Shown piece after piece: positions 2,595 to 33,912 of a stretch of 64,000 nucleotides of DNA (within the stretch, counting starts at the first letter, position 1; every line of letters starts with the position of its first letter). Both the position numbers and the translations under genes were made by a program. The stretch is from Gammaproteobacteria bacterium (GTDB lineage Bacteria; Pseudomonadota; Gammaproteobacteria; UBA12402). The stretch covers positions 9,519-73,518 of the forward strand of contig JASFHH010000002.1 in the NCBI GenBank assembly GCA_050123335.1, in the 5' to 3' direction. The notes beneath the pieces were generated by a model. It searched no databases and had not been told where the DNA came from. It was given only the letters and a program-made list of their open reading frames with translations.

Positions 2595-4630
2595 TGAACG
2601 TATTACTAAAAAAATACAAATTTCCGCCGTTTGATAAAATTAAATATAAAGACATTGAGCCGGCATTAGATAAAATTTTAACTGATAATCGCGCGCAATT
2701 AGCGGAACTTTTAGAAAGTAAAAAATTTACTTGGAAAAATTTGATTGTGCCTATAGAGGAAATGGGTGATTGTTTAAATAAGATGTGGTCGCCAATCAGT
2801 CATCTAAATAGTGTAATGGATTCAACAGAGTTGCGAGCAATTTATAATCGCTGCTTGCCGAAGTTAGTAAAATATCATACCGAGATTAGTCATAATACCA
2901 AACTATATAACGCGGTAAAATCAATTGCGAAAAGTAAATCTTTTAGAAAACTTAACAAAATTCAGCGCAGAATTATTAAACATGAAGTTCGTGATTTTAA
3001 GTTAGCAGGTGTGGCTTTAAATAAAAAAGATAAAGAAAAATTTGCTGTTTTGCAACAGCAATTAGCAAATTTGACTACTAAGTTTTCTGAAAATGTAATG
3101 GATGCAACCAGATCCTGGTATAGTCATGTTACCAATAAAAAACAGTTGTCTGGTTTGCCTCAGCGTATTATTACGGTAGCGAAAAATGAAGCGAAAAACA
3201 GGAAGGTGCAAGGCTGGGTGTTGACTTTGGATTTTCCTGTTTATTATGCAGTAATGACTTATGCAGATAATCGTGCGTTGCGTAAAAAAATGTATCATGC
3301 TTATGTTACACGCGCTTCAGATCAAAAACCTAGTAAGAAAAAATTTGATAATTCTAAAATCATGCAGGAAATTTTGCAAATTAGGCTGAAGCTTTCTGCG
3401 TTGCTTGGATTTAAAAATTTTGCGCAATATTCGATTGCGACCAAAATGGCAGAAAACACTAAACAAGTCATGGTTTTTTTAACTGAATTAGCAGAGCGCA
3501 CGTTTCCGTATGCAAGAAAAGAAATGCAGCAGCTAAAGAAATTTGCGCGTGATAAGTATAAAATCAAAAAACTGGAAGCTTGGGATATTTCTTATTATAG
3601 CGAAAAATTACGCAAACAAGATTACGCAATTACTCAGGAAGAGCTACGTCCATATTTTGTTGAAGAAAATGTATTGCAAGGTTTGTTTATTATCGTGGAA
3701 AAATTATTTAATTTTAAAATTAGATTACGTAAAAATAAAAATATTTGGCATAAAGATATTAAATATTATGAAATCGTTAACAATAATCAAACAATCGCAG
3801 GATTTTATGTGGATCTATATGTCAGAGCGCACAAACGTAGCGGTGCCTGGATGGATGAATGTCGAGTAAGAAGAAAATTATCAAATAAAAAAATTCAATT
3901 ACCAATAGCATATTTAACTTGCAATTTTAGTAAGCCTTCAAAAAACAAACCGTCGTTGCTTACTCATGATGAAGTTATAACTTTGTTTCATGAGTTTGGC
4001 CACTGTTTGCAGCATTTGTTAACTAAGATTGATTATCCGGAAGTTTCGGGAATTAATGGTGTTGAGTGGGATGCGGTAGAGCTTGCCAGTCAATTTATGG
4101 AAAATTTCGCTTGGCAAAAAGAGGGTTTAGACTTGATTGCTAAACATTATAAAACCCACAAGAAGTTGCCGCAAAAATTATATCAAAAATTAATTGCCAG
4201 CAAAAATTTTCATGCGGCGATGCAAATGGTGCGCCAATTAGAATTTGCTTTATTTGATTTTCGTCTTCATCAGGAATTTAATCCGAAAAAGAAAGATCAA
4301 ATCCAAACGATTTTAAATCAAGTTAGAAAAAAGATAAGTGTCATACCAACACCAGCATTTAACCGTTTTCAGCAGAGTTTTTCACATATTTTTGCTGGTG
4401 GTTATGCCGCAGGTTATTACAGCTATAAATGGGCGGAAGTTTTATCTGCTGATGCGTTTGCTAAATTCGAGGAAACGGGGGTTTTTAATCGCAAAACTGG
4501 ACGTGAATTTTTGACTTGTATTTTGGAAAGAGGCGGTTCAGAAGATGCTATGGAATTATTTAAGAAGTTTCGTGGCAGAAAACCAAAAATCGATGCTTTG
4601 TTGAAATCATGTGGTTTGATTCAAAATTAA
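2594..4630 (+). CDS. prlC: M3 family zinc metallopeptidase (oligopeptidase A / Dcp-like)
   Basis: HEFGHCLQH zinc-binding HExxH motif in a ~680-aa protein, the typical size for OpdA/Dcp. The ATG overlaps the priA stop (ATGA). Confidence 0.85.
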   Translation: MNVLLKKYKFPPFDKIKYKDIEPALDKILTDNRAQLAELLESKKFTWKNLIVPIEEMGDCLNKMWSPISHLNSVMDSTELRAIYNRCLPKLVKYHTEISHNTKLYNAVKSIAKSKSFRKLNKIQRRIIKHEVRDFKLAGVALNKKDKEKFAVLQQQLANLTTKFSENVMDATRSWYSHVTNKKQLSGLPQRIITVAKNEAKNRKVQGWVLTLDFPVYYAVMTYADNRALRKKMYHAYVTRASDQKPSKKKFDNSKIMQEILQIRLKLSALLGFKNFAQYSIATKMAENTKQVMVFLTELAERTFPYARKEMQQLKKFARDKYKIKKLEAWDISYYSEKLRKQDYAITQEELRPYFVEENVLQGLFIIVEKLFNFKIRLRKNKNIWHKDIKYYEIVNNNQTIAGFYVDLYVRAHKRSGAWMDECRVRRKLSNKKIQLPIAYLTCNFSKPSKNKPSLLTHDEVITLFHEFGHCLQHLLTKIDYPEVSGINGVEWDAVELASQFMENFAWQKEGLDLIAKHYKTHKKLPQKLYQKLIASKNFHAAMQMVRQLEFALFDFRLHQEFNPKKKDQIQTILNQVRKKISVIPTPAFNRFQQSFSHIFAGGYAAGYYSYKWAEVLSADAFAKFEETGVFNRKTGREFLTCILERGGSEDAMELFKKFRGRKPKIDALLKSCGLIQN

Positions 4631-4687: not shown

Positions 4688-5932
4688 CTAAATTTTTGGG
4701 GTCATTATAGGTTTATCAGATGTTCGGATAATGATGTCGTTGAGTTTTTTTGTTTTAGTCAGCGAAAGCATTTTTTTTCGTGAGAGTATAGTTTCTTTTT
4801 GTGAAAACTCATGTATAAAATTAGTTATTTTTCTCATGTATATTTTATGTTTTTTATAACAACTAAAGTTATACATAGAGCCATCCTCGTATATAACAAT
4901 AATTTTTGGTGGATTTGTGATATTACACCCAACCATATGATAAGCATTTTGATATACAGCAATTTTTATAATTTTTTGGTCAGGAAATTTATTATTCTTG
5001 TTATTAGAATAATAGGTAATCTTTTTTAGTTTCTTATTTTTCTGTAAAGCAAAAAATTTTTTGTCACTAAATATGTAAATTGATTTACCAAAATAGTCCA
5101 TAAATAAGTATTCTACATTGATTTGATTATTAGGGATATTTTTTAAATATAGTTTGCCTTCTATTAATTCTAAAAAGTTTTTTAGATCCCATGGCCCAAT
5201 AACCGATTTTTTCCCTAGGTAAATCCAGCCATTTCTTAGAGTTTTAAAAAAAGTCATGTTACGATATTTGACAATATCTATTATTTTGTATTTACTTAAT
5301 TGTTCTAGTTCTTTAAATGACACTGTGCCTTTTTGGATGAATCTTATCATTTGATAAACTTTGGTTTTGTGACTATTTATTTCTTCAATAAAATACATAG
5401 AATTATGGGTTTTTATAACGTTATATGGGTTTTTAAAACATATTTTTGATTCAGTCTCGAACATAACCTTCACGAATTTGTGATTTTTTTTGATGTCACA
5501 AAAAACCATGCTTGTATTTTTAGCTTGCAGCACAATAAAGTTATTATTCGCCTTAATATTTGTGATTTTTATTTTTTTGCTTATGCCTTTTAGAAGTTCA
5601 GGGTTTGAGCATTCGTGTATATATTGATCACCAAAAGACCCTTCAGAATTAAAATAATCTGTACCTAAAGAACCCATGATATATATCTCATTTTTATCAG
5701 TTAGGAATAAACTGCCATAATGAGAGACAGTGGCAACGTCGATAATGTTAAATTTAGATAAGTTTGCTATCGGAATGGGTCTGCTTATTAATGTTTCTTT
5801 GCTAAAGCCCAGTAATGGCATATGGTTATTACTAAATTGTTCAGTAGATTTTGCCGTGTAATAAACTTTTCCATCAGTACCTAGAAATAAAGTATGAAAG
5901 TACCCAATACTAATTTTTTTGATTTTAAACAT
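4688..5932 (-). CDS. hypothetical Lys/Asn-rich protein, possibly beta-propeller (RCC1-like) repeat, effector-like
   Basis: Very AT-rich 414-aa ORF. Recurring G-[ST]-D-G-x-[VI]-Y / LGTDYF-like segments are weakly reminiscent of RCC1 blades. No catalytic motif recognised. Confidence 0.4.
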   Translation of the reverse strand: MFKIKKISIGYFHTLFLGTDGKVYYTAKSTEQFSNNHMPLLGFSKETLISRPIPIANLSKFNIIDVATVSHYGSLFLTDKNEIYIMGSLGTDYFNSEGSFGDQYIHECSNPELLKGISKKIKITNIKANNNFIVLQAKNTSMVFCDIKKNHKFVKVMFETESKICFKNPYNVIKTHNSMYFIEEINSHKTKVYQMIRFIQKGTVSFKELEQLSKYKIIDIVKYRNMTFFKTLRNGWIYLGKKSVIGPWDLKNFLELIEGKLYLKNIPNNQINVEYLFMDYFGKSIYIFSDKKFFALQKNKKLKKITYYSNNKNNKFPDQKIIKIAVYQNAYHMVGCNITNPPKIIVIYEDGSMYNFSCYKKHKIYMRKITNFIHEFSQKETILSRKKMLSLTKTKKLNDIIIRTSDKPIMTPKI

Positions 5933-10329: not shown

Positions 10330-11391
10330 ATGGCAAAAAGCAAACAAGAAGTAACTTCTGCAGATAGCAGCGGTAAAGATAAAGCATTATTAGCGGCATT
10401 AGGCCAAATTGAGCGGCAATTTGGTAAGGGAACAGTAATGCGTATGGGTGACACTAGTGTTGCGCATGATATTGATGTGGTCTCAACTGGCTCATTAGGG
10501 CTGGATATAGCTTTAGGTATTGGCGGTTTGCCGCGTGGACGCATAGTAGAAGTTTATGGTCCTGAATCATCCGGTAAAACAACTTTGACCTTACATTTAG
10601 TGGCTGAGTGTCAGAAAAATGGTGGCACGGCAGCTTTTGTGGATGCCGAAAATGCGTTGGATCCAGTTTATGCTGAGAAATTAGGAGTTAATGTAAACGA
10701 ACTATTAATTTCTCAACCAGACAATGGTGAACAGGCGTTGGAAATCACTGATATGTTGGTGCGTTCGGGCGCGGTTGATTTGATCGTAATTGACTCAGTT
10801 GCGGCTTTAACTCCAAAGGCAGAAATTGAAGGCGAAATGGGCGATTCCCATATGGGGTTACAAGCACGATTAATGTCACAAGCGTTGCGTAAATTAACGG
10901 CGAACATTAAGCGCTCAAATACTTTGGTAATTTTCATTAACCAAATTCGCATGAAGATTGGAGTGATGTTTGGCAATCCGGAAACAACAACTGGTGGTAA
11001 TGCATTGAAGTTTTATTCTTCGGTGCGTCTCGATATTCGTCGTACTGGTGCAATCAAGAAAGGCGACGAAGTGTTAGGTAACGAAACTCGTGTAAAAGTG
11101 GTCAAGAATAAAGTCGCACCTCCATTCAAGAAAGCTGAGTTTGATATTATTTATGGGCAAGGTATTTCACGTGAAGGAGAAATCATTGATTTGGGAGTGA
11201 AGCACGATTTTGTCGAAAAATCTGGAGCTTGGTATAGTTATAATGGCGAACGCATTGGGCAAGGTAAAGATAATGTACGTAACTTTTTACAAGCTAACTC
11301 TGAAATTGCGGCAGATATTGAAGGAAAAATACGCGCGAAATTAATGGATGTTGCAAAATCTTGCGTTTCTGAAACGGAGTCTGAGGAATAA
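10330..11391 (+). CDS. recA: recombinase RecA
   Basis: GPESSGKTT Walker A motif and canonical RecA sequence throughout. 353 aa. Confidence 0.95.
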
Positions 11392-11844
11392 ATGACCGAG
11401 CAAGAAGTTCGTAATGTTGCAATAAAATTATTGGCGCAACGTGAACATTCACGTTATGAATTACAAAGTAAATTATTAATTCGTAAATATGATCGCGCAG
11501 TCATTGAAAAAGTATTGGACGAATTAAGTCAGACAAATTTACAAAGTGATATTCGCTTTGCGCAAAGTTATACGCGGATGAAAATGGCGCGAGGTTTTGG
11601 TCCAATACGTATTCGCCAAGAACTGCACGATCGTGGGATTGCTGATGATTTAATTGAAGAATGTTTGGCGATAAGTTTAGATGCATGGATGCAGGAAATA
11701 ATTAAAGTGCGGAGTAAAAAGTTTGGCTCTGACGTACCGCACGATTATGAGGAGCGTGCTAAACAAATGCGTTTTTTGCAATATCGAGGTTTTACTACTG
11801 AACAAATAAAACGAGGAATGAGATCGATCGATGAAAACAGCTAA
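11392..11844 (+). CDS. recX: RecA regulator RecX
   Basis: Lies immediately downstream of recA. It is a 150-aa helical protein with the conserved RecX pattern (...LLAQREHSRYELQSKL...). The recA-recX-alaS synteny supports the call. Confidence 0.85.
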   Translation: MTEQEVRNVAIKLLAQREHSRYELQSKLLIRKYDRAVIEKVLDELSQTNLQSDIRFAQSYTRMKMARGFGPIRIRQELHDRGIADDLIEECLAISLDAWMQEIIKVRSKKFGSDVPHDYEERAKQMRFLQYRGFTTEQIKRGMRSIDENS

Positions 11845-14383
11845 ATTACGAAAAGTTTTTTTAGATTATTTTCAAAAAAAACAACATGAAATAGTTGCTA
11901 GCAGTTCTTTAGTGCCAGAAGATGATCCAAGTTTGTTTTTTGTTAATGCGGGCATGGTGCCATTTAAAAATGTATTTTTAGGTAGAGAAAAAAGACCTTA
12001 TGTTCGTGCGACTTCAGTGCAAAAATGTATGCGGGTTAGCGGAAAGCATAATGATTTAGAACAGGTTGGTTTTACTGCACGCCATCATACTTTCTTTGAA
12101 ATGCTAGGCAATTTTAGTTTTGGTGATTATTTTAAGCGTGAAGCGATTCAGTATGCGTGGGAATTTTTGACTGATGTTTTAAAAATTCCTGCAGAAAAAT
12201 TATGGATAACAGTTTATAAAGATGATCAGGAAGCTGCTGATATTTGGCTAAAAGAAATAAAAATTGATCCAAAACAATTTTCTAGATGTGGAGAAAAAGA
12301 TAATTTTTGGGCGATGGGTGATATTGGTCCTTGTGGCCCTTGCTCAGAAATTTTTTATGATCATGGTGATAAATTTTCTGGTGGTCCTCCGGGTTCTCCA
12401 GATGAAGATGGTGATCGGTATGTAGAAATTTGGAATTTAGTGTTCATGCAGTATAACCGCGATCATAATGGTAATTTAACTCCATTACCAAAACCATCAA
12501 TAGATACTGGTATGGGTTTGGAACGAGTTGCGGCGGTAATGCAAGGAGTGCATAGTAATTACGATATTGATTTATTTCAAGATTTACTTAAAGCTGTTGC
12601 TGATGTTGTTGGTGCAAAAGATTTTGATGATCCTGGATTAAAAGTCATTGCTGACCACATTCGTGCAAGTGTATTTTTAATTGCAGATGATGTGTTACCA
12701 TCCAATGAAGGCAGGGGTTATGTGTTGCGCCGTATTATTCGGCGTGCAATTAGGTATGGAAATAAATTAGGAATGAGTAGGCCATTTTTTTATAAATTGG
12801 TTGCACCATTGGTTAAAATCATGGGTGATGCTTACCCAGAAATTTCCACAGCACAGCATTTTATTGAAAAAACCATATTGCATGAAGAAGAACAATTTGC
12901 CAAAACTTTACATCTTGGTTTAAAGATTTTAGAAGAAGACATTGCACATTTAAAAACAAAAGTTATTCCGGGTGGGATAGTGTTTAAATTATATGATACT
13001 TATGGCTTTCCGGAAGATTTAACTGCAATTATTGCGCGTGAGCGTGGTTTAGAAATTGATATAAAAGGTTTTGAAAAAGAAATGCAACAACAGCGTAATC
13101 GTTCAAAAGCTTCCAGTCAGTTTAAAACTGATTATAATCTTGAATTGCCCGAGATGTCAGCTACTAAATTTATTGGTTATGATAATTTAACTTGCGATGG
13201 TAAAGTTTTAGCTTTGCTGCAAAATAATAAGTTGGTAGATGAATTAAATAATGGTGAGGGTGCAATTGTTTTAGACTGTACCCCGTTTTTTGCTGAAGCT
13301 GGTGGACAAATTGCCGATACAGGTGAAATTAAATTGGCTTCCGGCATTTTTGCGGTACATGATACGCAAAAAATCGGTAATGTGATTGTGCACTTTGGGA
13401 AAATGCAGCAAGGGAAATTACATACTGATGATAAAGTTACTGCTTGCGTTTCTCCTGATAATCGCCGCGCAGTTGCATTGAATCACACAGCAACACATTT
13501 GTTACATGCAGCGTTGCGTAAAGTTTTAGGTAAACATGTAAAACAAAAAGGTTCTTTGGTTGCAGCTGATCGGTTGCGTTTTGATTTTTCTCATCCTAAT
13601 CCGGTTACACCAAAAGAATTATATCAAGTTGAAGAATTGGTTTATGCACAAATTTTATCGAATTGTCCGGTAGAAACTAATATTATGGCACCGAATGATG
13701 CAATGAAAATGGGTGCTATGGCATTATTTGGTGAGAAATATGGTGAAAAAGTTCGTGTGTTAAGTATTGGCGATTTTTCATTAGAGCTTTGTGGTGGCAC
13801 ACATGTGCAACGCACTGGCGATTTAGGTTATTTTCGTATCATTAGCGAAACAGGTGTGGCTGCAGGAGTGCGTCGAATTGAAGCAGTAACAGGTTGGGGT
13901 GCTTCACAATTTGTTTTACAACAAGCAGAGCATAATCATGCAGAGCTTGCGCAATTACAATTACAAAAACGCGAATTGCAAAAGAGCATTGAACAACTTA
14001 AAAATAAATTGGCTGGAAGTTTTGTAAATGATTTAGCGAATGCCGCAAAAAAAATTAACGATATAAATGTTTTAACCGCAATAGTTTCTGATGTTGATGT
14101 AAAAGGTTTGCGCACATTATTAGATCAATTAAAAAATAAATTTGATGAAGCAGTGATTGTGTTAGCAACAACTAAAAATAATGTGGTTAATTTAGTTGCA
14201 GGTGTAACAAAAAGTTGCACAAATCGTTTTCATGCTGGTGAAATAGTAAACATTGTTGCTAAAAAAATAGGCGGAAAAGGTGGTGGTAGAAAAGATTTAG
14301 CACAAGGTGGTGGCAATAATTTAAACGAATTAAATAATGCATTAATTCTTGTTGAAAAGTATGTTAAAGAAGGTATAAAATAA
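11831..14383 (+). CDS. alaS: alanine--tRNA ligase
   Basis: Class II aaRS motifs of AlaS (FTARHHTFFEMLGNFSFGDY; editing domain HTATHLLH...CGGTH). The 5' end overlaps the recX 3' end by 14 nt. Confidence 0.95.
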   Translation: MKTAKLRKVFLDYFQKKQHEIVASSSLVPEDDPSLFFVNAGMVPFKNVFLGREKRPYVRATSVQKCMRVSGKHNDLEQVGFTARHHTFFEMLGNFSFGDYFKREAIQYAWEFLTDVLKIPAEKLWITVYKDDQEAADIWLKEIKIDPKQFSRCGEKDNFWAMGDIGPCGPCSEIFYDHGDKFSGGPPGSPDEDGDRYVEIWNLVFMQYNRDHNGNLTPLPKPSIDTGMGLERVAAVMQGVHSNYDIDLFQDLLKAVADVVGAKDFDDPGLKVIADHIRASVFLIADDVLPSNEGRGYVLRRIIRRAIRYGNKLGMSRPFFYKLVAPLVKIMGDAYPEISTAQHFIEKTILHEEEQFAKTLHLGLKILEEDIAHLKTKVIPGGIVFKLYDTYGFPEDLTAIIARERGLEIDIKGFEKEMQQQRNRSKASSQFKTDYNLELPEMSATKFIGYDNLTCDGKVLALLQNNKLVDELNNGEGAIVLDCTPFFAEAGGQIADTGEIKLASGIFAVHDTQKIGNVIVHFGKMQQGKLHTDDKVTACVSPDNRRAVALNHTATHLLHAALRKVLGKHVKQKGSLVAADRLRFDFSHPNPVTPKELYQVEELVYAQILSNCPVETNIMAPNDAMKMGAMALFGEKYGEKVRVLSIGDFSLELCGGTHVQRTGDLGYFRIISETGVAAGVRRIEAVTGWGASQFVLQQAEHNHAELAQLQLQKRELQKSIEQLKNKLAGSFVNDLANAAKKINDINVLTAIVSDVDVKGLRTLLDQLKNKFDEAVIVLATTKNNVVNLVAGVTKSCTNRFHAGEIVNIVAKKIGGKGGGRKDLAQGGGNNLNELNNALILVEKYVKEGIK

Positions 14384-14459
14384 AATTCCTGTTTGAAAAA
14401 AAACAGATGGAAAAAAATAATTCAAATCTTTTTTGGATTAAGTTTTTAAATTAAATGGA

Positions 14460-14700
14460 ATGGCAGGAGTGATTGCAAATTAATTGTAATAACTTCTGAA
14501 ATAAATCAAGTAAACTTGGCCCTGATTAGGGAGGAAAGAAGGGGGAGTTTAATCTTACGTATTAAACGCTCTTTTAATGTGCAAGTAGGTTAATGCAAAT
14601 TATTTTGCTTGCTGGGAGCATTAAGAATTGAGGAAAAGTGAGGGAATGTCGGCCAAGGATGGCTAGGCCTCTTTTAGTTACTTAGCTATAAGAAGGCTAT
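14460..14700 (+). ncRNA. candidate CsrA-titrating small RNA (RsmY/RsmZ/CsrB-like), GGA-motif rich
   Basis: About 8 GGA motifs fall within ~200 nt, including AAGGAUGG presented in the loop of a GGCC...GGCC hairpin (14651-14670). The region sits immediately upstream of csrA and is followed by hairpins with U-rich tails. No ORF is present. Confidence 0.25.
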
Positions 14701-14787
14701 ATGCCAATCCTACCTCAAGATGCGATTTTTGGTTTTCGCTTTTGCATTGTTCGCCAAAATTTCGCATCTTGAGGTAGGATTGGCATA
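14701..14787. repeat. 87-nt near-perfect inverted repeat (about 25-bp perfect stem) with U-rich 3' tail
   Basis: ATGCCAATCCTACCTCAAGATGCGA ... TCGCATCTTGAGGTAGGATTGGCAT was read directly from the sequence. It is followed by AGCTCTTTTCTTT. Confidence 0.6.
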
Positions 14788-15072
14788 GCTCTTTTCTTTA
14801 ATTACCGGATGATTTGTTCAAAAAATGAACAAAAGTGGTTGTTTTGGGGTATTTTTGTGATTTTTTCGCAAAAAAAAACCAAAAAATTTGAATCCTTAAG
14901 GTTTTTTTAAGGTTTATCTACTACAATAAGATCATCCTAGGTGTTTAATGTCTTCCGTTAAAGCTTGGGGAGTGGGTTTTGTTCAAAGTGTATATGTTGA
15001 GCAAAGATAAGTTGATACAAAGTATTAAATAGGGAATAAGTACTATAGTTACTATAAGGATATAAGGAGTTC

Positions 15073-15276
15073 GTGATGCTGATTTTAACAAGACGTACAG
15101 GAGAAAGTTTGATTATAGGGGATGATGTTACAGTAACTGTGCTTGGTATTAAAGGTAACCAAGTACGTATTGGAGTAAACGCTCCAAAGGAAGTTTCTGT
15201 TCATCGCGAAGAAATATATCAGCGTATTCAGGATGAGAAACAAGGAAAGGGAAGTAGCGACAGCGATAAGGAATAA
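15073..15276 (+). CDS. csrA: carbon storage regulator CsrA (RsmA)
   Basis: [48 protein letters not shown] is the canonical CsrA sequence. The leader has two GGA motifs, one of them in the SD. Confidence 0.95.
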
Positions 15277-15552
15277 TGTTTCTGACGACTGTTAGAAATA
15301 TCTTGATAAAGGAATGTTTGGTTCTTGTTTATGTAGTTGCGTGTAATCTGCGCGTATTTATATACCCATCACGATCGAATTTTTTCTAAACCAAAACATC
15401 TAATTCTAAACGCAATTCGGCGCATTACAAAACGGAAAGCCTGATCATAATAGGTATCGTATGTCATTTATTTTTACTGTAAAATCTGTGTAATTTTCTC
15501 AGCTTGCAACGGTCTAATTCTCAAGTTATACTCAGCCGTTTTAGAATACTTT

Positions 15553-15647
<95 letters not shown>

Positions 15648-15739
15648 TAATATGTAGATTTAGTATTAAGATAGAAAGAAGATTTAAAAAATTAGTTATA
15701 GCGGGGATGAGAACCCTCGCAATCGCAAAGCGATTGGAA

Positions 15740-15851
15740 GAGGGTTCGACAAAATCGGCAGGATAGCCGATTTTGAACGTCGAAGCGAAGCTTCGACGGC
15801 CCGAAGGGCGAGGACACAGGATGTGTCCGAGTAATCCCTCTCTCTCCGCCA
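15740..15851 (+). pseudogene. tRNA-Ser-like 3' fragment (T-arm + acceptor 3' strand + CCA) split in the T-loop by an ~85-nt structured insert
   Basis: GAGGGTTCGA | insert | ATCCCTC TCTCTCC G CCA. The insert contains the hairpins AATCGGCAGGATAGCCGATT and GAGGACACAGGATGTGTCCGAG. Confidence 0.5.
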
Positions 15852-15879
15852 TTTATATTACAGAGTAACATAAGCTTTT

Positions 15880-15953
15880 GCGCCCGTAGCTCAGCTGGAT
15901 AGAGTACCTGGCTACGAACCAGGCGGTCGGGAGTTCGAATCTCTCCGGGCGCG
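15880..15953 (+). tRNA. tRNA-Arg (anticodon ACG)
   Basis: 74-nt cloverleaf: acceptor GCGCCCG/CGGGCGC, anticodon loop CUACGAA, T-loop GGGAGTTCGAATCTCTC, discriminator G; CCA is not encoded. Confidence 0.9.
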
Positions 15954-15990
15954 CTTAGATTCAAAAAAAATCCACTTATAAGTGGTTTCG

Positions 15991-16845
15991 TTAGTTGCTT
16001 TTTTGTTGTTCTTCCTGTTGCTCGATTTGATTCAAATAATTTTTCTGTGATATGACTTGCTTCCCAGTTTCTTTTTCTAATTCCACGCGAGCATTGCCAG
16101 CAATTTTACCGCCTTTTTGCGCTGCATCTTTATTTGCATTAAAACCTTGTGCATTTTTGCTGCGAGTTATTTCTGTGGTTGATGCTTCACCAAGCATTGA
16201 AAAAATTAACTCTAGATCAGTCATGTGATCGCGCAAATTTTCTCGCTTGAGCTTTTTATGTTTTTTATATTCATTTGGTGTCATGCCAAAGGCAGCTTTG
16301 GAAATTTCTGCAGTTAAAATTGCGTATTCGCGTTGTTCTTTGACATCACGTTTTTTCCATTCCTCAGTTAATTCATCACGAATTGCAATACTGCGCATTC
16401 GTTTTTCAATCCAATCATCTGAGTAACCTTTGGCTTTGTAAATAGCGCGAGTACGTTTTGAGGCAAGCTCCGGATCCTCGATTTCCTGAATTCTCTCATA
16501 CCCAACTTTGGCTAACCATCTTTTGAACGGCTCAGCCTTGGGTGAGGGGATAGATTGAATTATGCGGAAAATTCCTTCGGTGTTGGCGGCGTTTAGCTTT
16601 TGTTTACCACCAGAAGTTTCAAAATAAAGGGGGGTGACAATTTGTCCCCACCCTTTGGTTAACTCGTTGTCTCTTATACGCATTTTTTTAATATAGTCAC
16701 TTGCATTAACTGAATCGGTTAATGCTTGTACAACATCGGCAATTACAAACCACCATTCCCCATTATGCATGGTTTTGCGTATATTTTTGCCTTTAAAGAC
16801 AGCAATTTTGGTTGATGACTCAATAGTTGTATTATTCTTGTTCAT
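15991..16845 (-). CDS. Bro-N domain (phage antirepressor-like) protein
   Basis: The N-terminus (...AVFKGKNIRKTMHNGEWWFVIADVVQALTDSVNASDYIKKM...) matches the Bro-N/KilA-N-type DNA-binding fold that is frequent on mobile elements. Immediately adjacent to tRNA-Arg. Confidence 0.6.
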   Translation of the reverse strand: MNKNNTTIESSTKIAVFKGKNIRKTMHNGEWWFVIADVVQALTDSVNASDYIKKMRIRDNELTKGWGQIVTPLYFETSGGKQKLNAANTEGIFRIIQSIPSPKAEPFKRWLAKVGYERIQEIEDPELASKRTRAIYKAKGYSDDWIEKRMRSIAIRDELTEEWKKRDVKEQREYAILTAEISKAAFGMTPNEYKKHKKLKRENLRDHMTDLELIFSMLGEASTTEITRSKNAQGFNANKDAAQKGGKIAGNARVELEKETGKQVISQKNYLNQIEQQEEQQKSN

Positions 16846-21753: not shown

Positions 21754-24537
21754 ATGGAACAGAAATTTTATTGTAGGTTCTTTAATGTTCTTTTGCTGTT
21801 ATTTCTTTTATTGTTTAGTTTGGCTTGTTATGCCAATAAATTGAACAGCATAGCGTTTTATTATGGCAGCAATTTACCAGTTGATGAGTTACGAGCTTTT
21901 GATGTAACAGTTGTTGATCCTGAACAGCATAGTATTTCACCAGCGAAGTTTAATGCATCACATAGCCAAATGTTTGCTTATGTAAGTGTGGGTGAGGTCA
22001 ATCCAGCGCGCAGTTATTTTGCTAAAATATCCAGCAATTGGATCATAGGAGAGAACCCAACGTGGCAAGCCAAAGTTTTGGATCAAAGCAATCCCCAATG
22101 GCGGGATTTTTTTGTAAAGCGCATTATCAAGCCACTTTGGGACAAGGGTTATCGTGGATTTTTTCTGGATACATTAGATTCATATCAATTAGCAGCAAAG
22201 ACTCCGGAAGCTAGAGCCAAGCAAGAGGAAGGTTTAGTAAAATTAATAGAAGCAGTTAAAAAGGAATATCCACAGGCACAATTAATTTTTAATCGTGGAT
22301 TTGAAATTTTGCCTAAAGTGCATAAATTGGTTTATGCCGTCGCAGCAGAATCATTATTTGCTGGTTGGAATCAAGCAGAACGTAAATATGAGCCGGTATC
22401 AGCAGAAGATAGAGAGTGGTTGTTAACTAAGCTGCGGGAAGTTCAAGGGTATAATTTACCTATAGTAGTGATTGATTATGTGGCGCCGGCAAAACGAACA
22501 GAAGCCAGGGAAGTTGCACAAAAAATCATGAAATTGGGTTTTATTCCCTGGGTGGCAGATGCTGATTTGACTAGTTTGGGTATAGGTAGTGTTGAAGTTA
22601 TGCCGCGAAAGATATTGGTTCTTTATGATAGTAACATTACCAAAGATATTATGCAAACTAATGCTTTGATGTATGCAGCAATGCCATTGGAATATTACGG
22701 TTATGTGCCTCTATTTCATGATGTGCATAAGTGGGTGTTACCACAGAAAAGTTTAGCTGGTAGTTATGCAGGTATTTTGTTGTGGACGGGAACTGATTAT
22801 TTATCATTACATAAACAGTTGCAAGATTGGTTGGTTAAACAAAAACAGCAGAATATTCCCATTGTTATTCTGAATAGTTTGGGAGAAAAATTAAGCAAGA
22901 ATTTTACTAATAATTTTGGTTTGGTGATAAAGTCTAAAGCCCCTAGGCCAGCTTCTGTAAAAATAATCAAGAAATCTCCATTAATGGATTATGAAATGCA
23001 ATCTTTTCCTAATCCATATAGTTTTGTTCCCATTAAAAGTTTGCAGGGAACAGTTTTATTGCAATTACAAGATAATCGTGGCGATTTAGCAGATATGGCA
23101 GCGATAACCCCATGGGGAGGATATGTAATACAGCCATTTGTATTAGTTAATTTGCCGAATGAACAGGCCAGATGGATTGTGAACCCATTGCAATTTTTTA
23201 GACTTGCCTTTAAATTACAGCCGCAACCCGTTCCAGATGTAACTACTGAAAATGGTCAGCGTATCATGATAGTGCATGTAGATGGTGATGGTTTTGTTAG
23301 CCGTACTGAATGGAATCCAAAGTTGTTAGATGGTGCAGGGATGTTGCAGGAAATTTTTCAGCACTATGATGTTCCATCAACAGTTTCGATTATTCAGAGT
23401 GAAATAGGTAAAAAAGGTGTTTATCCTAAATTATCAGAAGAAGCAGAAGCGGTAGCAAGAAAAATTTTTCGTTTGCCTTGGATAGAAGTAGCTAGTCATT
23501 CTTTTTCACATCCTTATGTGTGGCAGCCTGAATTAGTAAAAAAATTGCCGAAATACTATAAAACATGGCACCTGCCAGTACCTAATTATAAATTTAATCT
23601 TCAAGACGAGATTACTGGGTCAGTTAAATATATTAATACTGAGTTAGCACCTGCAGGAAAACTTTGCAAAGTTTTTCTTTGGACGGGAAATTGTAATCCG
23701 GGGGCAGCAGCAGTTGCTTTGACATATAAAGACAATTTATTGAATATGAATGGTGGTGATACGGTTATTACTAATAATCAAAAGTCATTAACTAATATTG
23801 CGCCACTTGGAGTTTACAAGGGAAAATATTTTCAAGTATTTGCACCTAATCAAAATGAAAACATTTATACCAATGAGTGGCGTGGTCCATATTATGGTTA
23901 TCGGCGCGTTATTGAAACGTTTAAGCTAACAGATAAGCCATTACGATTTAAGCCGATTGATATTTACTACCATTTTTATAGTGCCTCCAAAACAGCTTCA
24001 TTAAAAGCATTAAAGACAGTTTATGATTGGGCTTTAAAGCAACCAGTAATAAATCTTTATGCTTCAGAGTATATCAATAAAGTGTTGGATTTTAATCATA
24101 TTGCGTTAGCCAAAAAAGATTCTGGTTGGTTGATTAATAGTAGAGGTGAATTGCGTGAATTACGTATTCCACAGTCATTGGGTTATCCAGATTTATTGCA
24201 TAGTACAAATGTAATTGGATTTAGTAGTTACGGTAAAGATTATTATGTGCATTTGGGCACTAAGCAACAGACTATATTACGATTGCAATCACAGGCGCCT
24301 AAAATATCTTATATAGCTGATGCTAATGGATTAATTAGTGATTTTGTTAGGAGTTCTGATGGATTTACTTTTAAGCTAAAAAGTTATACGCCGGCAAAAT
24401 TAAACCTGGCTAATATGCATAGTTGCAAATTATATCAAAACAATCGTTTAATTAGGCCACAAGAAACTGTTACAGGTATGCAAAGTTTTGTATTTAAGGA
24501 TAAAGGCTCATATGCATTTAAGGTTCGTTGTAAATAG
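21754..24537 (+). CDS. pelA: PelA: exported bifunctional Pel polysaccharide hydrolase / CE4 deacetylase
   Basis: N-terminal signal peptide. N-terminal hydrolase domain (...WDKGYRGFFLDTLDSY...). Central CE4 deacetylase motifs (HVDGDGF; ASHSFSHPY). 927 aa, comparable to PelA (~950 aa). Followed by pelB-G. Confidence 0.8.
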   Translation: MEQKFYCRFFNVLLLLFLLLFSLACYANKLNSIAFYYGSNLPVDELRAFDVTVVDPEQHSISPAKFNASHSQMFAYVSVGEVNPARSYFAKISSNWIIGENPTWQAKVLDQSNPQWRDFFVKRIIKPLWDKGYRGFFLDTLDSYQLAAKTPEARAKQEEGLVKLIEAVKKEYPQAQLIFNRGFEILPKVHKLVYAVAAESLFAGWNQAERKYEPVSAEDREWLLTKLREVQGYNLPIVVIDYVAPAKRTEAREVAQKIMKLGFIPWVADADLTSLGIGSVEVMPRKILVLYDSNITKDIMQTNALMYAAMPLEYYGYVPLFHDVHKWVLPQKSLAGSYAGILLWTGTDYLSLHKQLQDWLVKQKQQNIPIVILNSLGEKLSKNFTNNFGLVIKSKAPRPASVKIIKKSPLMDYEMQSFPNPYSFVPIKSLQGTVLLQLQDNRGDLADMAAITPWGGYVIQPFVLVNLPNEQARWIVNPLQFFRLAFKLQPQPVPDVTTENGQRIMIVHVDGDGFVSRTEWNPKLLDGAGMLQEIFQHYDVPSTVSIIQSEIGKKGVYPKLSEEAEAVARKIFRLPWIEVASHSFSHPYVWQPELVKKLPKYYKTWHLPVPNYKFNLQDEITGSVKYINTELAPAGKLCKVFLWTGNCNPGAAAVALTYKDNLLNMNGGDTVITNNQKSLTNIAPLGVYKGKYFQVFAPNQNENIYTNEWRGPYYGYRRVIETFKLTDKPLRFKPIDIYYHFYSASKTASLKALKTVYDWALKQPVINLYASEYINKVLDFNHIALAKKDSGWLINSRGELRELRIPQSLGYPDLLHSTNVIGFSSYGKDYYVHLGTKQQTILRLQSQAPKISYIADANGLISDFVRSSDGFTFKLKSYTPAKLNLANMHSCKLYQNNRLIRPQETVTGMQSFVFKDKGSYAFKVRCK

Positions 24538-24583
24538 TGTTTTTGATTTTAGAATGACTTTGATTTATTAGGAGGATAGAGTT

Positions 24584-25570
24584 TTGCAGGGAATACTGAT
24601 GAGGAATTTTGCGAGATTTGTTTTATTGTTTTGTTCATGGTTGTTTTGTGTTGTTTGTAATGCAAGTGAAGTACATAGTGTCGCATTCTGCTATAGTTAT
24701 AATCCGCCGATTGAAAGACTAAAACAGTTTCAAATTGTTGTGGTTGATCCGGATAGTAAATTAAATCCAAAAAAATTTAATTCTGATCATAGACAAGCTT
24801 TTGCATATGTTAACATTGGTGAGATACACCCAAGCAGGTGCTATTTTGCAAAATTACATCCAAAATTATGGTTATGGGGAAATCCTTACTGGGGGTCTAT
24901 GATTTTAGATCACAGTAATCACAAAACGCGTGCATTTATCATGAAGCATGTTATTGCACCAATATGGGATAAAGGTTATCGTGGATTTTTTCTTGATGGG
25001 TTAGATTCGTATAAAATTGTTCCTTATTTGCGTCAAGAAAGTAAAGTGCAGCATGAAGGAATATTAAGAATTATCTTAGCGATAAAGCATAAGTATCCAG
25101 AAGCTAAAATTATTTTGAACAGAGGTTTTGAGTTTTTGCCGAAAATCCATCATTTTGTTTATGCTGTTACAGCTGAATCTGTTTTTGCTGCCTGGAATCC
25201 CAAGGATAGAATTTATGAGAAAGTTCCTTTTTTTTATCGTCGGCTCACTGTTAGAAAATTAAAGCAAATAAAAGATAAATATAAATTACCAATTATAGTT
25301 ATTGATTATGTGTCACCTGAACAAGTTAATCGAAGCAATTTAATTGCTCACGAGATTCGTAAATTGGGTTTTATTCCATGGGTAACTGATTGGAAATTAT
25401 CTATGATTGGTGTTGGTAATAAGTATAATAATTTTATTACATCAAATTATACTCGAAAGTCAAAGAAAGGTTACATGTTGGAACGGTTTTATCCCTATTT
25501 TTATAGTAGCATCTTAAAAAAAATATATTTAAGATGGGGTACATTATTTTTTTATAAGATAAAAAATTAA
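24584..25570 (+). CDS. PelA N-terminal glycoside-hydrolase-domain paralog (stand-alone, 328 aa)
   Basis: Collinear similarity to residues ~30-300 of the upstream PelA (FAYVNIGE..., WDKGYRGFFLDGLDSY, LNRGFE, IDYV, LGFIPWV). Has a signal peptide but lacks the deacetylase half. Confidence 0.6.
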   Translation: MQGILMRNFARFVLLFCSWLFCVVCNASEVHSVAFCYSYNPPIERLKQFQIVVVDPDSKLNPKKFNSDHRQAFAYVNIGEIHPSRCYFAKLHPKLWLWGNPYWGSMILDHSNHKTRAFIMKHVIAPIWDKGYRGFFLDGLDSYKIVPYLRQESKVQHEGILRIILAIKHKYPEAKIILNRGFEFLPKIHHFVYAVTAESVFAAWNPKDRIYEKVPFFYRRLTVRKLKQIKDKYKLPIIVIDYVSPEQVNRSNLIAHEIRKLGFIPWVTDWKLSMIGVGNKYNNFITSNYTRKSKKGYMLERFYPYFYSSILKKIYLRWGTLFFYKIKN

Positions 25571-25609
25571 GCCATATTTCGAGTAACAGAAATGAGATAA
25601 AGGTCACGT

Positions 25610-26530
25610 ATGCGTTTATGGTTCGCTGCAAGAGATAGAGATAAACATTCGATTAAAGCTAAATTTGCTGCCTGGTGGCAAATTTTGGGGTTTATAGTGG
25701 TAGCTGTTATTTTATTACTATTTTTTTTTCCTAAAGAAGGTATTTTAGGTAACATTGCCCAACAAAGAGAAGCAGATAGATTAGCTAAGCTTTATTTGCA
25801 AAATTTAGTTGACTTATATCCTGGTAATAAGCAGTTCCATATATTGTTAGCTGAACAAAATGTCAGAGCAGGCGAGGTTGTTGAAGCAGTTAAACAGGTA
25901 CTCCCTTTTGTGGTTGTAGAACCAAAAACCAAGACTGATTGGCATGCTTTATTAATTTATTACAAGATTGTACGCATTGAGACTTATAGTAAACCGCGAC
26001 TGAGTTATGCGCGAACTAGAGGTATGCAAAAAATGCAACAGTTGCTGGAGGTTTTATTAAAAGGCAATTTTGCTGCATTAGATATGTTAATGTTGGCTCA
26101 AGATGCGGTAAAATTAAATCGAATTGACACTGCATTAGCGGCTTATAATAAAATAACTGCAGTGCCACCCGCTGCATGTGTTAGTCGTGATATGCAGATG
26201 TGTTTAGCGTTATCTGTAGATGGTGCAAAATTTATGTTATCACAAAGCAAATATAAAGCTGCTGCACAATTATATTTTCTAGCACAATTAAATAGTACAA
26301 GTTTAGCTGATAAACGGTTGTATTTTATTAATGGATTGAAGTGTTTGCAATCAGGTAATATGTTGGAAGATGCTATGCAAGCTGCTCAAAAGCATATTGG
26401 TAGTTTAGCGCATGATAAAAAAACATTAGTTTTTTTAACACGTCTAGCGTTAATGTCGAACGAGCCTAAATTAGCGCAACAATATATTCGGCGGGCTTTG
26501 CAATTAAAACAGCAGGTTACAAAGCCATAA
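25610..26530 (+). CDS. pelB: PelB N-terminal module (membrane-anchored TPR protein)
   Basis: An N-terminal TM helix is followed by TPR-like helical repeats. The stop overlaps the next ATG (TAATG). Confidence 0.55.
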   Translation: MRLWFAARDRDKHSIKAKFAAWWQILGFIVVAVILLLFFFPKEGILGNIAQQREADRLAKLYLQNLVDLYPGNKQFHILLAEQNVRAGEVVEAVKQVLPFVVVEPKTKTDWHALLIYYKIVRIETYSKPRLSYARTRGMQKMQQLLEVLLKGNFAALDMLMLAQDAVKLNRIDTALAAYNKITAVPPAACVSRDMQMCLALSVDGAKFMLSQSKYKAAAQLYFLAQLNSTSLADKRLYFINGLKCLQSGNMLEDAMQAAQKHIGSLAHDKKTLVFLTRLALMSNEPKLAQQYIRRALQLKQQVTKP

Positions 26531-29439: not shown

Positions 29440-29481
29440 TAATTAGGAATGATTTGTATAGGCAAATTGGGGGTAAATGAA

Positions 29482-30033
29482 ATGAAAAAGCTAAGATATT
29501 TCTTGATTATGATGATATCAGTTTTATTGGTAAGTTGTGCAACCACTACCATTACTGGTTCTCAAAAAATACCGCTGGTGCATGTTGGAGTTAATTGGGG
29601 TGTAATTCCTATGGTTAATAATACTCAAACGCCACAGGCTGGCGAAAAAGCAGCTACAATTACGGCAGGCATATTACGTGCAACTAACATACGTAAAGTT
29701 ATTATTTATAAACAACGGGTATCATGTAGTAAAATTTTAGCTTGCCCACAACAACAACCGTCAATGTATAAAGTTAGAACGTGGGCAAGAATGAACCATA
29801 TTCGTTATGTTATGATGGGTACAGTTAATGAATGGCGTTATAAAGTTGGTTTAGATGGCGAGCCAGCTGTTAGTGTAGATTTAAATTTGATAGACATGCG
29901 TACAGGCAAAATAATTTGGAATGCTGTAGGTAGTAAAGTTGGAGGTAGTCGGGGTAGTTTGGGGGTTATTGCTCATCAGTTAATTGCGGAGATGTTGTAT
30001 AATTTGATTACAGTAAATAATTGCATTAATTAG
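29482..30033 (+). CDS. pelC: PelC lipoprotein
   Basis: Lipobox LLVSC after a signal peptide; ~180 aa; lies between pelB and pelD. The start is at the ATG after a GGGGG RBS; the track ORF begins 33 nt earlier. Confidence 0.7.
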   Translation: MKKLRYFLIMMISVLLVSCATTTITGSQKIPLVHVGVNWGVIPMVNNTQTPQAGEKAATITAGILRATNIRKVIIYKQRVSCSKILACPQQQPSMYKVRTWARMNHIRYVMMGTVNEWRYKVGLDGEPAVSVDLNLIDMRTGKIIWNAVGSKVGGSRGSLGVIAHQLIAEMLYNLITVNNCIN

Positions 30034-30141
30034 TAATAAGGATTGAGGGTGGAGGTTCCGGATAAATATTACGCATTTCTCGGGATGTGATTATTAAACA
30101 TGCGTTAAAGGATGTATTAGGATTAAGGGGTTATTTAAGGT

Positions 30142-31485
30142 GTGGTGAAGAAATTTAGCTATAGAGATAGATTATTATATAGGGCCAAAGGATTTTGGCC
30201 CTATGTTGAAGCAGTTGTGATTACTGTAATAATTCTTAGTATTTCTTATATTTTTAATCGGGAAGATCCTCTTTGTCTTCAAAGTTCTTTTCCATGGGTT
30301 TGGTTCGCACCAGTTTTGGTTGCATTGCGTTATGGTACCTTGGCAGGTGCATTTTCCATTATTATTGTGTTATTGGCTTTATTTCAATTAGAACCTAAGG
30401 GGGAGTTGCTAGAGATAGTACGTTATCGCTATTTCATGCTTGGGGGAGTATTACTAACAGTTTTGTGTGGCGAGTTTAATAATGCTTGGCTTAATTCGAT
30501 GAAACGTTTTGCGCAATTAAATCAATATGTGCACAAACGTTTAGATGGTTTGAATAGAGCATTTTATTTAATACGGTTATCGCATGATAGATTAGAGCAT
30601 AACTTAATTAGTAAAACAGTAACTTTGCGCAGTACCTTTAATGATTTGTTTCGTTTACTTGTTGCTGCCAAAGGTGAGCTAACAGTAGAAATCGCTGATC
30701 GTTTTATGCATCTATTGGATCAACATTGTGCTATGGAAGCTGCTGCATTATATCGTTATCAAGATGGGAAGTTTATTACTGAACCTATTGCACATATTTG
30801 GGCTGACAGGCCATTGCTAAATCCAGATGATATTATGGTACAACATTGTTTGCAGCATCACGGAGTTAGTTATTATGCGGCTAATCAGTTACAGAGAGAA
30901 CAGCAAAGTGATTACTTGGCAGCAATAGCAATGCGTACTAATGAAGATGAGTTAGTAGGTATATTAACTATTACAGATATGACGTTTTGGTCTTTAAATG
31001 AAGAAACTTTACGTGAATTAAGTGTATTGTTGTCTTATTTTGCTGATGGTATTTGGGCGATTAAAGTATCGCCAGAAGTATTGCAAGCTTATCCCGATTG
31101 TCCACCAGAATTAGCAGTAGAAATGCAGAAGCTTATTCGTTTGAAGCGTGATTATCGAGTTGACAGTGCGTTCGTGGCTTTTGTAATAGAACATAATGAT
31201 TTGCGTTATCGTAATATTGTTATGCAGTTGCAACATATGCGTCGTGGGGTGGATACTTGTTGGCATCATCAGGAGAAGCAGCGTGATATTTTATTTACTT
31301 TAATGCCTTTTTCACCACCCGTGGCTGTGGAAGGATATCGCGCGCGTTTTGCGCGTTATTTGCAGTCAGAATTTGGCATTAAAATCGATGAGCATAAGGG
31401 AGTTTATTTTAGATATTTGCAAATTTTTGCTGCAACGCCGTTACAGATTATTCAACAATTGATGGAATATGTGAATGCAAAATGA
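30142..31485 (+). CDS. pelD: PelD, c-di-GMP receptor (TM + GAF + degenerate GGDEF)
   Basis: N-terminal TM helices; 447 aa (PelD is ~455 aa). Position in the operon supports the call. GTG start. Confidence 0.7.
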   Translation: MVKKFSYRDRLLYRAKGFWPYVEAVVITVIILSISYIFNREDPLCLQSSFPWVWFAPVLVALRYGTLAGAFSIIIVLLALFQLEPKGELLEIVRYRYFMLGGVLLTVLCGEFNNAWLNSMKRFAQLNQYVHKRLDGLNRAFYLIRLSHDRLEHNLISKTVTLRSTFNDLFRLLVAAKGELTVEIADRFMHLLDQHCAMEAAALYRYQDGKFITEPIAHIWADRPLLNPDDIMVQHCLQHHGVSYYAANQLQREQQSDYLAAIAMRTNEDELVGILTITDMTFWSLNEETLRELSVLLSYFADGIWAIKVSPEVLQAYPDCPPELAVEMQKLIRLKRDYRVDSAFVAFVIEHNDLRYRNIVMQLQHMRRGVDTCWHHQEKQRDILFTLMPFSPPVAVEGYRARFARYLQSEFGIKIDEHKGVYFRYLQIFAATPLQIIQQLMEYVNAK

Positions 31486-33909: not shown

Positions 33910-33912
33910 TTT

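Follow-up and report, generated by a model that had tools for sequence, protein, structure and literature searches.

The known RNA antagonists of CsrA are free-standing genes driven by regulators of the GacA/UvrY/LetA type, and small RNAs (sRNAs) derived from 3' untranslated regions (UTRs), e.g., CpxQ and SroC, share the terminator of the upstream mRNA. CsrB carries 22 GGA motifs in ~369 nucleotides (nt) (PMC7652899). The csrA gene of E. coli is autoregulated through four CsrA sites in its leader, one of them over the Shine-Dalgarno (SD) sequence, and has five promoters (Yakhnin et al. 2011, in PMC7652899), while CsrA of L. pneumophila binds its own mRNA (PMC5338858). McaS, GadY and other sRNAs recovered by crosslinking and immunoprecipitation sequencing in E. 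coli and Salmonella are demonstrated transcripts that bind CsrA, and CbsR12 of Coxiella has four CsrA sites (PMC7652899, bioRxiv 10.1101/679134). The present analysis concerns a 64-kb stretch of DNA (64,000 nt, hereafter the window) from an uncultured gammaproteobacterium with a genome of 33% G+C, in which the spacer between alaS and csrA holds a conserved, GGA-rich element on the + strand (~14388–14801). This element probably binds the CsrA encoded just downstream, a proposal built on about five fixed GGA sites, one of them in a canonical CsrA-type hairpin retained in every orthologous spacer.

Like CsrB, CsrC and RsmX/Y/Z, the element would yield a non-coding + strand RNA with repeated GGA or A(N)GGA motifs, several of them in loops or single-stranded, and a final terminator-like hairpin followed by a U tract, and the gammaproteobacterium concerned has a canonical CsrA. 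Unlike these RNAs, it matches no covariance model, has neither a GacA/UvrY/LetA box nor a recognizable promoter, reaches about half the GGA density, is linked to csrA, appears continuous with the alaS transcript, and is confined to one uncultured clade. Comparisons with the Rfam models for CsrB, CsrC, RsmX, RsmY and RsmZ (RF00018, RF00084, RF02144, RF00195, RF00166) gave no Csr/Rsm match on the whole window at the gathering threshold, none on positions 13500–16500 at E ≤ 10, and none on five orthologous loci at E ≤ 5; the Rfam matches overall were two tRNAs and chance microRNA-like ones on a long hairpin. The membership in the Csr/Rsm families that had been envisaged in an earlier note on this DNA is thus not borne out by their models, and the element, which does not appear to belong to these families, may nevertheless work like them. 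With McaS, GadY and CbsR12 the element shares a small number of GGA sites (2–5) in an RNA that may have another primary role, and titration or competition would go through few high-affinity hairpins. Those RNAs come from unrelated loci with demonstrated transcripts and CsrA binding, whereas here the transcript and its binding are predicted from sequence. As with CpxQ and SroC, the stop codon and the element are not separated by a terminator, conserved structure sets in immediately behind the stop, and the 3' hairpin and U tract would be shared with the upstream mRNA; unlike them, the proposed role is protein titration rather than base-pairing, for an element known from sequence alone.

The genes recA (10330–11391), recX (11392–11844), alaS (11831–14383) and csrA (15076–15276) follow one another on the + strand, with tRNA-Ser (15553–15642) and tRNA-Arg (15880–15953) further 3' on the same strand. 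With the end of alaS at 14383 and the start of csrA at 15076 (ATG) or 15073 (GTG), the spacer measures 689 nt, and no open reading frame (ORF) of at least 30 amino acids (aa) occurs inside 14440–14800. Directly adjacent alaS-csrA pairs in other gammaproteobacteria are separated by 59–338 nt (234 nt in E. coli K-12), and in more distant bacteria the two genes are either 59–338 nt apart or have lysC between them. The description of the spacer as unusually long and ORF-free is therefore accurate, and a gene-free spacer of 460–780 nt is specific to this clade.

The GGA cluster in this spacer is real, strand-specific and non-coding. On the + strand GGA occurs at 14457, 14466, 14530, 14533, 14544, 14615, 14632, 14643, 14657 and 14777; nine of these fall within 14450–14680 (231 nt), where the − strand has none (TCC on the + strand), and the − strand GGA in 14440–14800 is a single one, at 14708. 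The enrichment on the opposite strand that would have pointed to a compositional artefact is thus not seen. Eight motifs lie within 14505–14801, and 12 between the alaS stop and the U tract at the 3' end of the element. Relative to a whole-window mean of 2.35 GGA per 230 nt, the cluster represents a strand-specific excess of ~3.8-fold, and the window maximum of 10 GGA per 230 nt is attained at the element. Values of 9–10 are found elsewhere only in the csrA leader and 5' coding region and in + strand coding sequence, in which GGA is a glycine codon, and among the intergenic stretches of at least 120 nt in the 64 kb this is the densest GGA cluster.

Orthologous spacers were found by AlaS- and CsrA-based searches and comprise nine distinct versions: the window, L001, L166, L168, L081 (identical to L173 and L174), L175, L167, L171, and L162 (identical to L163–L165). 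The closest genome, a metagenome-assembled genome of an uncultured 'Gammaproteobacteria bacterium' (L001), has an AlaS identity of 94%, and every other species representative 59% or less. The element and its surroundings consist of the following parts, from 5' to 3'.

14352–14381, + strand: promoter-like TTGAAA-18-TAAAAT, overlapping the last alaS codons and the stop (10/12 match)
14389–14406, + strand: weak hairpin CUGUUU-GAAAAA-AAACAG, rich in A/U and without a U tract, directly behind the alaS stop
14453–14460, + strand: AAAUGGAA motif with GGA 14457; AAAUGGA[A/U] in 9/9 orthologous spacers
14464–14498, + strand: hairpin H0, CAGGAGU...ACUUCUG, 5' of the core, with GGA 14466 in its 5' arm
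14505–14575, + strand: core block A, consisting of AUCAAGUAAACUU, H1, an A-rich linker and H2, with GGA 14530, 14533 and 14544
14520–14523 / 14528–14531, + strand: H1, CCCU/AGGG, within block A
14541–14573, + strand: H2, GGGGGAGUUUAAU...AUUAAACGCUCU, within block A
14581–14612, + strand: hairpin H3, specific to the window subclade
14613–14650, + strand: purine-rich run, mostly single-stranded by prediction, with GGA 14615, 14632 and 14643
14651–14664, + strand: H4, GGCC-AAGGAU-GGCU, canonical CsrA-type site with GGA 14657 in the loop
14667–14697, + strand: hairpin H5a, GCCUCUUUUAG...AGCUAUAAGAAGGC, ancestral hairpin that separates H4 from the U tract
14698–14789, + strand: very stable hairpin (arms 14700–14730 and 14757–14787) that buries GGA 14777
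14790–14801, + strand: U-rich tract UCUUUUCUUUAA (UCUUUUCUUU at 14790–14799), likely intrinsic-terminator tail and RNA 3' end
14895–14927, + strand: proximal csrA promoter region, in which CTTAAGGTTT is repeated in tandem every 11 nt, with TACAAT 6 nt further on
14934–15075, + strand: predicted csrA 5' leader (~140 nt) with GGA 14969, 15033, 15058 and 15066
15076–15276, + strand: csrA, 66 aa, PF02599, with L4 and R44, whose roles in CsrA are described in PMC7652899

The case for CsrA binding centers on H4. A near-consensus CsrA-like site, CCAAGGAUGG, occupies 14653–14662 and fits both the CARGGAUG portion of the consensus RUACARGGAUGU, obtained for CsrA by in vitro selection (SELEX), and the ANGGAN hexaloop recognized by CsrA/RsmE (PMC7652899). 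The earlier note placed this site in the loop of a GGCC/GGCC hairpin. Its position in the loop stands, but the stem has to be redrawn: GGCC 14651–14654 can be paired on paper with GGCC 14666–14669, whereas folding and comparison favor a GCC(A)/(U)GGC stem around an AAGGAU/AGGA loop, with short extensions at the flanks, and the second GGCC is not conserved and is part of the next hairpin. GCCA-N-GGAU is found in 9/9 orthologs, in all of which H4 folds with the GGA in the hairpin loop, and N (A, C or U) is the only loop base that varies. Immediately before H4, GUGAGGGAA or CU[U/G]AGGAU provides a fifth conserved GGA site in 8/9 orthologs. The purine-rich run has predicted unpaired probabilities of 0.6–0.95, and its GGA motifs are spaced 17, 11 and 14 nt apart (14615 to 14632 to 14643 to H4). 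Spacings of 11–17 nt are within the range of 10–63 nt that one CsrA dimer can bridge (PMC7652899). The burial of the GGA motifs in stems, which would have spoken against the earlier note, is not what folding predicts: about five, roughly half, are expected to be mostly unpaired.

Outside a few fixed motifs, the spacer is largely unalignable between subclades. Four GGA sites are fixed in 9/9 versions (AAAUGGAW, UAGGGA, GGGGAGUUU and GCCA-N-GGAU), and an invariant 15-nt block, GGGGAGUUUAAUCUU, also lies within the element. A profile of block A searched with nhmmer matches all clade members (E of 1e-14 to 1e-23) and none of ~160 alaS loci with AlaS identities ≤ 64%; the element is restricted to this uncultured, low-GC gammaproteobacterial clade. 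A scan of viral contigs with AGGGGAGTTTRATCTW gave 25 seed matches, none of which extends under the profile or occurs with csrA.

The substitutions in H0, H2, H3 and the terminator stem are mostly interchanges of G.U, A-U and G-C. Interchanges of the G.U type keep pairing on the + strand only, and the structure was therefore assigned to that strand. In the window subclade, H0 (helix 1 of the RNAalifold consensus) has 15 pairs, 6 of which vary on one side and still pair as G.U, A-U or G-C. One H2 pair is A-U in six sequences, G.U in two and G-C in one, and the 13 pairs of H3 (helix 5) include four with one-sided changes and one with a double change. Other hairpins are replaced rather than maintained; the L167 and L171 lineages have a different hairpin at the position of H3, and H5a (helix 7), common to L166 and L168, has a different counterpart in the L081 subclade that abuts the U tract. 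Just after alaS, CUGUUUU...AAAACAG is kept in all orthologs around a lineage-specific sequence between the arms. The secondary structure as a whole is plausible as a model; RNAalifold also offers an alternative in which UAAACUU pairs with GAGUUUA, and with which the invariant columns are compatible. The long hairpin, with 31-nt arms that are 94% complementary and end directly at the U tract, is unique within the window, and ~82 nt of it are a window-specific insertion absent from L166, L168, L001 and the other subclades. On this comparison, 14700–14787 is a lineage-specific insertion and not an ancestral part of the element.

The ends of the putative RNA are differently marked. From 14384, the first position after alaS, to 14790 there is no terminator-like site, and the hairpin at 14389–14406, considered as a terminator, was rejected as A/U-rich and without a U tract. 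No conserved sigma-70-like promoter stands in front of block A. The only recurrent promoter-like site is TTGAAA-18-TAAAAT over the alaS stop, with a candidate transcription start near 14388; it recurs in L081, L166 and L162, a conservation that is confounded by the conserved AlaS C-terminus, and its match number is not above shuffle expectation. Conserved pairing extends 5' of the core, as H0 in the window subclade and as another hairpin in the L081 subclade, and this, combined with the missing terminator after alaS, makes a 3' UTR or read-through RNA more likely. At the other end, the hairpins with U-rich tails noticed earlier are present (14667–14697 and 14700–14787, then UCUUUUCUUU), and a U[C/U]UUUUCUUUAA tract follows a hairpin in 8/9 orthologs, L162 being the one in which it was not found. 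The terminator-like signal is strong in the window and the L081 subclade, and the hairpin and U tract at 14790–14801 most likely form the 3' end of the RNA. A simple terminator scanner applied to 14300–15150 missed this site because the loop and stem do not fit its limits.

Taken together, it is proposed that the + strand from ~14388 to 14801 would be transcribed as one RNA, starting either as a 3' extension of the alaS mRNA or at a promoter overlapping the alaS stop codon, and terminating ahead of the csrA promoter, at the conserved hairpin with its U tract. This RNA would offer one high-affinity CsrA hairpin, H4, together with another four to seven GGA sites at distances within the reach of a single CsrA dimer, and on these grounds the binding of several dimers is proposed. 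It may act as a decoy or feedback element for the CsrA encoded 280 nt downstream, with the supply of decoy tied to alaS transcription. The full reading, i.e., a CsrA-binding RNA that is the alaS 3' UTR or derives from a promoter at the alaS stop, ends at ~14800 and serves as a cis-encoded decoy, is offered tentatively and with rather less than even confidence.

Several observations weigh against it. The claim that about eight GGA motifs in ~200 nt amount to a four-fold enrichment holds for the cluster itself, but a four-fold excess applies only in comparison with the genome as a whole, since the local sequence is rich in G (22%) and poor in C (13%). In dinucleotide-preserving shuffles of the sequence from the alaS stop to the U tract, 12 GGA compare with 7.7 expected (~1.5-fold, P ~0.03), and in eight orthologs the excess is 1.0–1.6-fold with P from 0.05 to 0.64. 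The GGA density of 29–40 per kb is about half that of CsrB and close to that of ordinary csrA leaders, and ordinary alaS-csrA spacers of other bacteria are also GGA-rich (17–45 per kb). Covariation is not significant, with 25–71 of 500 shuffles reaching the observed score, and the folding z-scores calculated with the inserted hairpin left out are modest (−1.3 to −2.4), with like values on both strands; the score of −8.7 obtained with the long hairpin included is due to the insertion at 14698–14789. Two of the fixed GGA sites, UAGGGA and GGGGAGUUU, are predicted to be mostly base-paired. The 3' end varies among the orthologs: a gap of 13–16 nt separates the strong hairpin from the U tract in L166 and L168, and in L162 no U tract was matched. 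Lastly, in L001 a miniature inverted-repeat transposable element (MITE) interrupts the element and the H5 hairpin is lost, which suggests tolerance or decay.

Much of this would be expected if the region were an alaS 3' UTR unrelated to CsrA, i.e., a structured tail with a terminator that serves as a landing pad for small mobile insertions, with GGA in excess through purine-rich composition and H4 just one conserved stem-loop. The weak GGA excess over local dinucleotide composition, the non-significant covariation and the missing match to a known RNA family agree with such a tail, as do at least three independent insertions or deletions (indels): the window hairpin, the L001 MITE with the loss of H5, and the MITEs of L167 and L171. 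The L001 MITE is ~170 nt long with inverted ends GACTTACG.../...CGTGTAAGTC, and the hairpin between H4 and the U tract was apparently lost there by recombination between GGAUGGC and GGAUUGGC. The same family stands directly after the alaS stop in L167 and L171, inserted at different spacer points in different lineages. As an observation in its own right, this MITE-like family has the ends CAGGACTTACGCGAAAAG...CTTTTCGCATAAGTCCTG and spans ~6785–6950 in L001, 1104–1225 in L167 and 830–900 in L171. Also separate is a GC-rich insert (CCCGACCCCCGTAGGGGCACGGCGAGACACGTACCCG...) at ~3160–3225 in L081/L173, between the terminator-like tract and the csrA promoter, which is absent from L175 and the other orthologs. 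Insertions between modules fit a modular protein-binding RNA and relaxed constraint equally well. What a CsrA-unrelated tail leaves unexplained is the pattern of conservation: terminator stems normally keep structure and not sequence, whereas GCCA-N-GGAU, GGGGAGUUUAAUC and AAAUGGAW are fixed in sequence amid an unalignable spacer, the sole variable loop base of H4 coincides with the degenerate position of the CsrA motif, and the element adjoins csrA and is the top non-coding GGA peak. A role unrelated to CsrA is thus considered rather unlikely, though it is the explanation to be taken most seriously after the decoy.

The csrA gene also has a conserved upstream region of its own, which bears on a second alternative. 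The tandem CTTAAGGTTT repeats (14895–14915), preceded by an A/T-rich stretch, and TACAAT (14922–14927) are invariant in 9/9 orthologs and set the downstream limit of the element. The repeats resemble the PmrA box of Legionella and Coxiella (cTTAATatT-N2-cTTAATatT). In L. pneumophila, csrA is reportedly under the control of PmrA (PMC12239595, PMC5338858). In the leader that follows, GGA 15066 lies within the SD sequence AAGGAG and, together with GGA 15058, in the conserved AAGGAUAUAAGGAG; AAGGA[U/A]AUAAGGAG is present in 8/9 orthologs and GGAUAUUAAGGAG in L162, so that the SD-proximal GGA pair is found in 9/9. The locus resembles the E. coli csrA leader in position and strand, in GGA sites 5' of csrA with one over the SD sequence, and possibly in a promoter at the alaS end. 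Since the proximal leader (14934–15075) already provides the E. coli-type arrangement, the element is an additional module, 280–560 nt further upstream, and unlike the E. coli sites it is set apart by a terminator-like hairpin, a U tract and a conserved promoter in a spacer three times longer (689 versus 234 nt).

It is nonetheless conceivable that the element is a distal csrA leader or attenuator, in which long transcripts begun at the alaS stop or further upstream cross into csrA, CsrA at H4 and the neighboring sites modulates termination at 14790–14801 or stability, and the GGA sites function in cis, for autoregulation, and not for titration in trans. The E. coli precedent of five promoters and four leader sites (PMC7652899) speaks for this, and the E. 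coli K-12 spacer has 4 GGA and 0 TCC; the alaS-csrA spacers of other gammaproteobacteria are likewise rich in GGA and biased to this strand. The promoter-like site over the alaS stop, which is seen in all orthologs, points the same way, and termination may be partial, given the 13–16-nt gap in L166 and L168 and the absence of a U tract in L162. The separately conserved promoter (tandem boxes and TACAAT) with its 140-nt GGA leader downstream stands against it, and in the window the hairpin with 31-bp arms followed by UCUUUUCUUU should terminate efficiently. Inspection by eye gave no antiterminator pairing that competes with the terminator; the one candidate, the 3' arm of H5a with the U-rich tail in L166 and L168, is far weaker than H5a. 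On balance a leader or attenuator is unlikely.

The idea that prompted the analysis, a CsrA-titrating sRNA encoded next to csrA, survives in part. A conserved, structured element with GGA motifs and a CsrA-type hairpin is there, but it does not look like a free-standing Csr/Rsm-type sRNA gene, i.e., one of ~150–300 nt that titrates CsrA from its own promoter driven by GacA, LetA or UvrY. Multiple GGA motifs, one of them in a canonical hairpin, and the terminator-like 3' end would suit such a gene, and TAAACU/TGAACU, 7 nt before H1, could be a weak −10. This −10 candidate is not supported, as it has no −35 and lacks A2 in three orthologs, and conserved pairing extends upstream of the putative start. 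The search for a GacA-type upstream box was likewise unsuccessful: no match to the GacA/UvrY box TGTAAG-N6-CTTACA with up to 3 mismatches lies near the element, the 22 matches in the window compare with 37.6 in shuffles, and the nearest (14160–14177, 3 mismatches) is inside alaS. A sigma-54-like TGGCAG-N5-ATTGCA at 14461–14477 was also discarded, because its GG/GC spacing is wrong by one and L166, L168 and L001 do not conserve TTGC. Combined with the negative Rfam searches, which extended to E ≤ 10, these results make a free-standing sRNA gene quite improbable. A 3' UTR-derived, Hfq- or ProQ-dependent sRNA that pairs with target mRNAs, with incidental GGA motifs, is more improbable by far; its terminator hairpin, U-rich tail and the invariant GGGGAGUUUAAUCUU as a possible seed would be in keeping with such an RNA, but the invariant block is predicted to lie inside a stem and the canonical CsrA hairpin would be left unexplained.

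Coding explanations of the spacer were also considered. No conserved ORF spans the orthologs. Loop indels of 1–4 nt in H2 break any reading frame and argue against a coding role of that region, a small ORF at ATGGAATGGCAGGAGTGA codes for 5 aa only and was rejected as a gene, and a 33-aa ORF at 14809–14910 was rejected as it has no ATG in L166. A lysC pseudogene remnant was considered since lysC sits between alaS and csrA in many relatives, but tblastn of aspartokinase against four spacers returned only noise (E > 4).

Other features of the neighborhood and of the wider genome were observed alongside the element. The tRNA-Ser/Arg cluster 3' of csrA looks like an integration hot spot: in the window the tRNA genes are followed by a Bro-N domain protein (15991–16845, − strand) that adjoins tRNA-Arg, and in L001/L161 a phage integrase (3205–4353) occupies the position after the tRNA genes. 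In L081, a degenerate partial copy of tRNA-Ser (3891–3965) precedes ~280 nt of GC-rich sequence and the intact tRNA-Ser (4248–4337), which suggests duplication of an attachment site left by an integrated element. A CsrA homologue (P0019, 86% identical) lies at 3001–3195 of L172 among many small ORFs with weak YopX matches, a phage-like context in which it may be a phage-encoded CsrA. At 4688–5932 of the window (− strand), an ORF contains RCC1 repeats; this eukaryote-like domain is common in bacteria that associate with amoebae and hints at a host-associated lifestyle. At 21754–35283 the window contains a Pel-type exopolysaccharide cluster with two GH114/PelA-like proteins, PelB (TPR and beta-barrel), PelD, a PelF-like glycosyltransferase and PelG. 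In Pseudomonas, Pel is controlled by Gac/Rsm.

Should the element turn out not to bind CsrA, it would still be a clade-specific conserved 3' UTR element, of modest interest. Binding of CsrA, if it does occur, would make it an antagonist or feedback RNA that is physically coupled to csrA and supplied through the transcription of a gene for an aminoacyl-tRNA synthetase. The amount of free CsrA would then be tied to the expression of translation-related genes, in a lineage with no detectable Rfam Csr/Rsm RNA in the sequence available. The boldest form of this proposal, for which the chances are rather low, is that a CsrA decoy with no sequence relationship to CsrB/RsmXYZ, and with no dependence on a Gac-type promoter, has become hard-wired in this clade between alaS and csrA and is made as the alaS mRNA's tail. 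If true, a housekeeping transcript that is coupled to growth and lies in cis to csrA would buffer free CsrA, and regulator and antagonist would form a cassette allowing Csr control that needs no BarA/UvrY-type input. A CsrA-binding element would represent a new family of CsrA-binding RNAs missed by current covariance models, with a bearing on how Csr circuits are annotated in uncultured, low-GC and possibly host-associated gammaproteobacteria.

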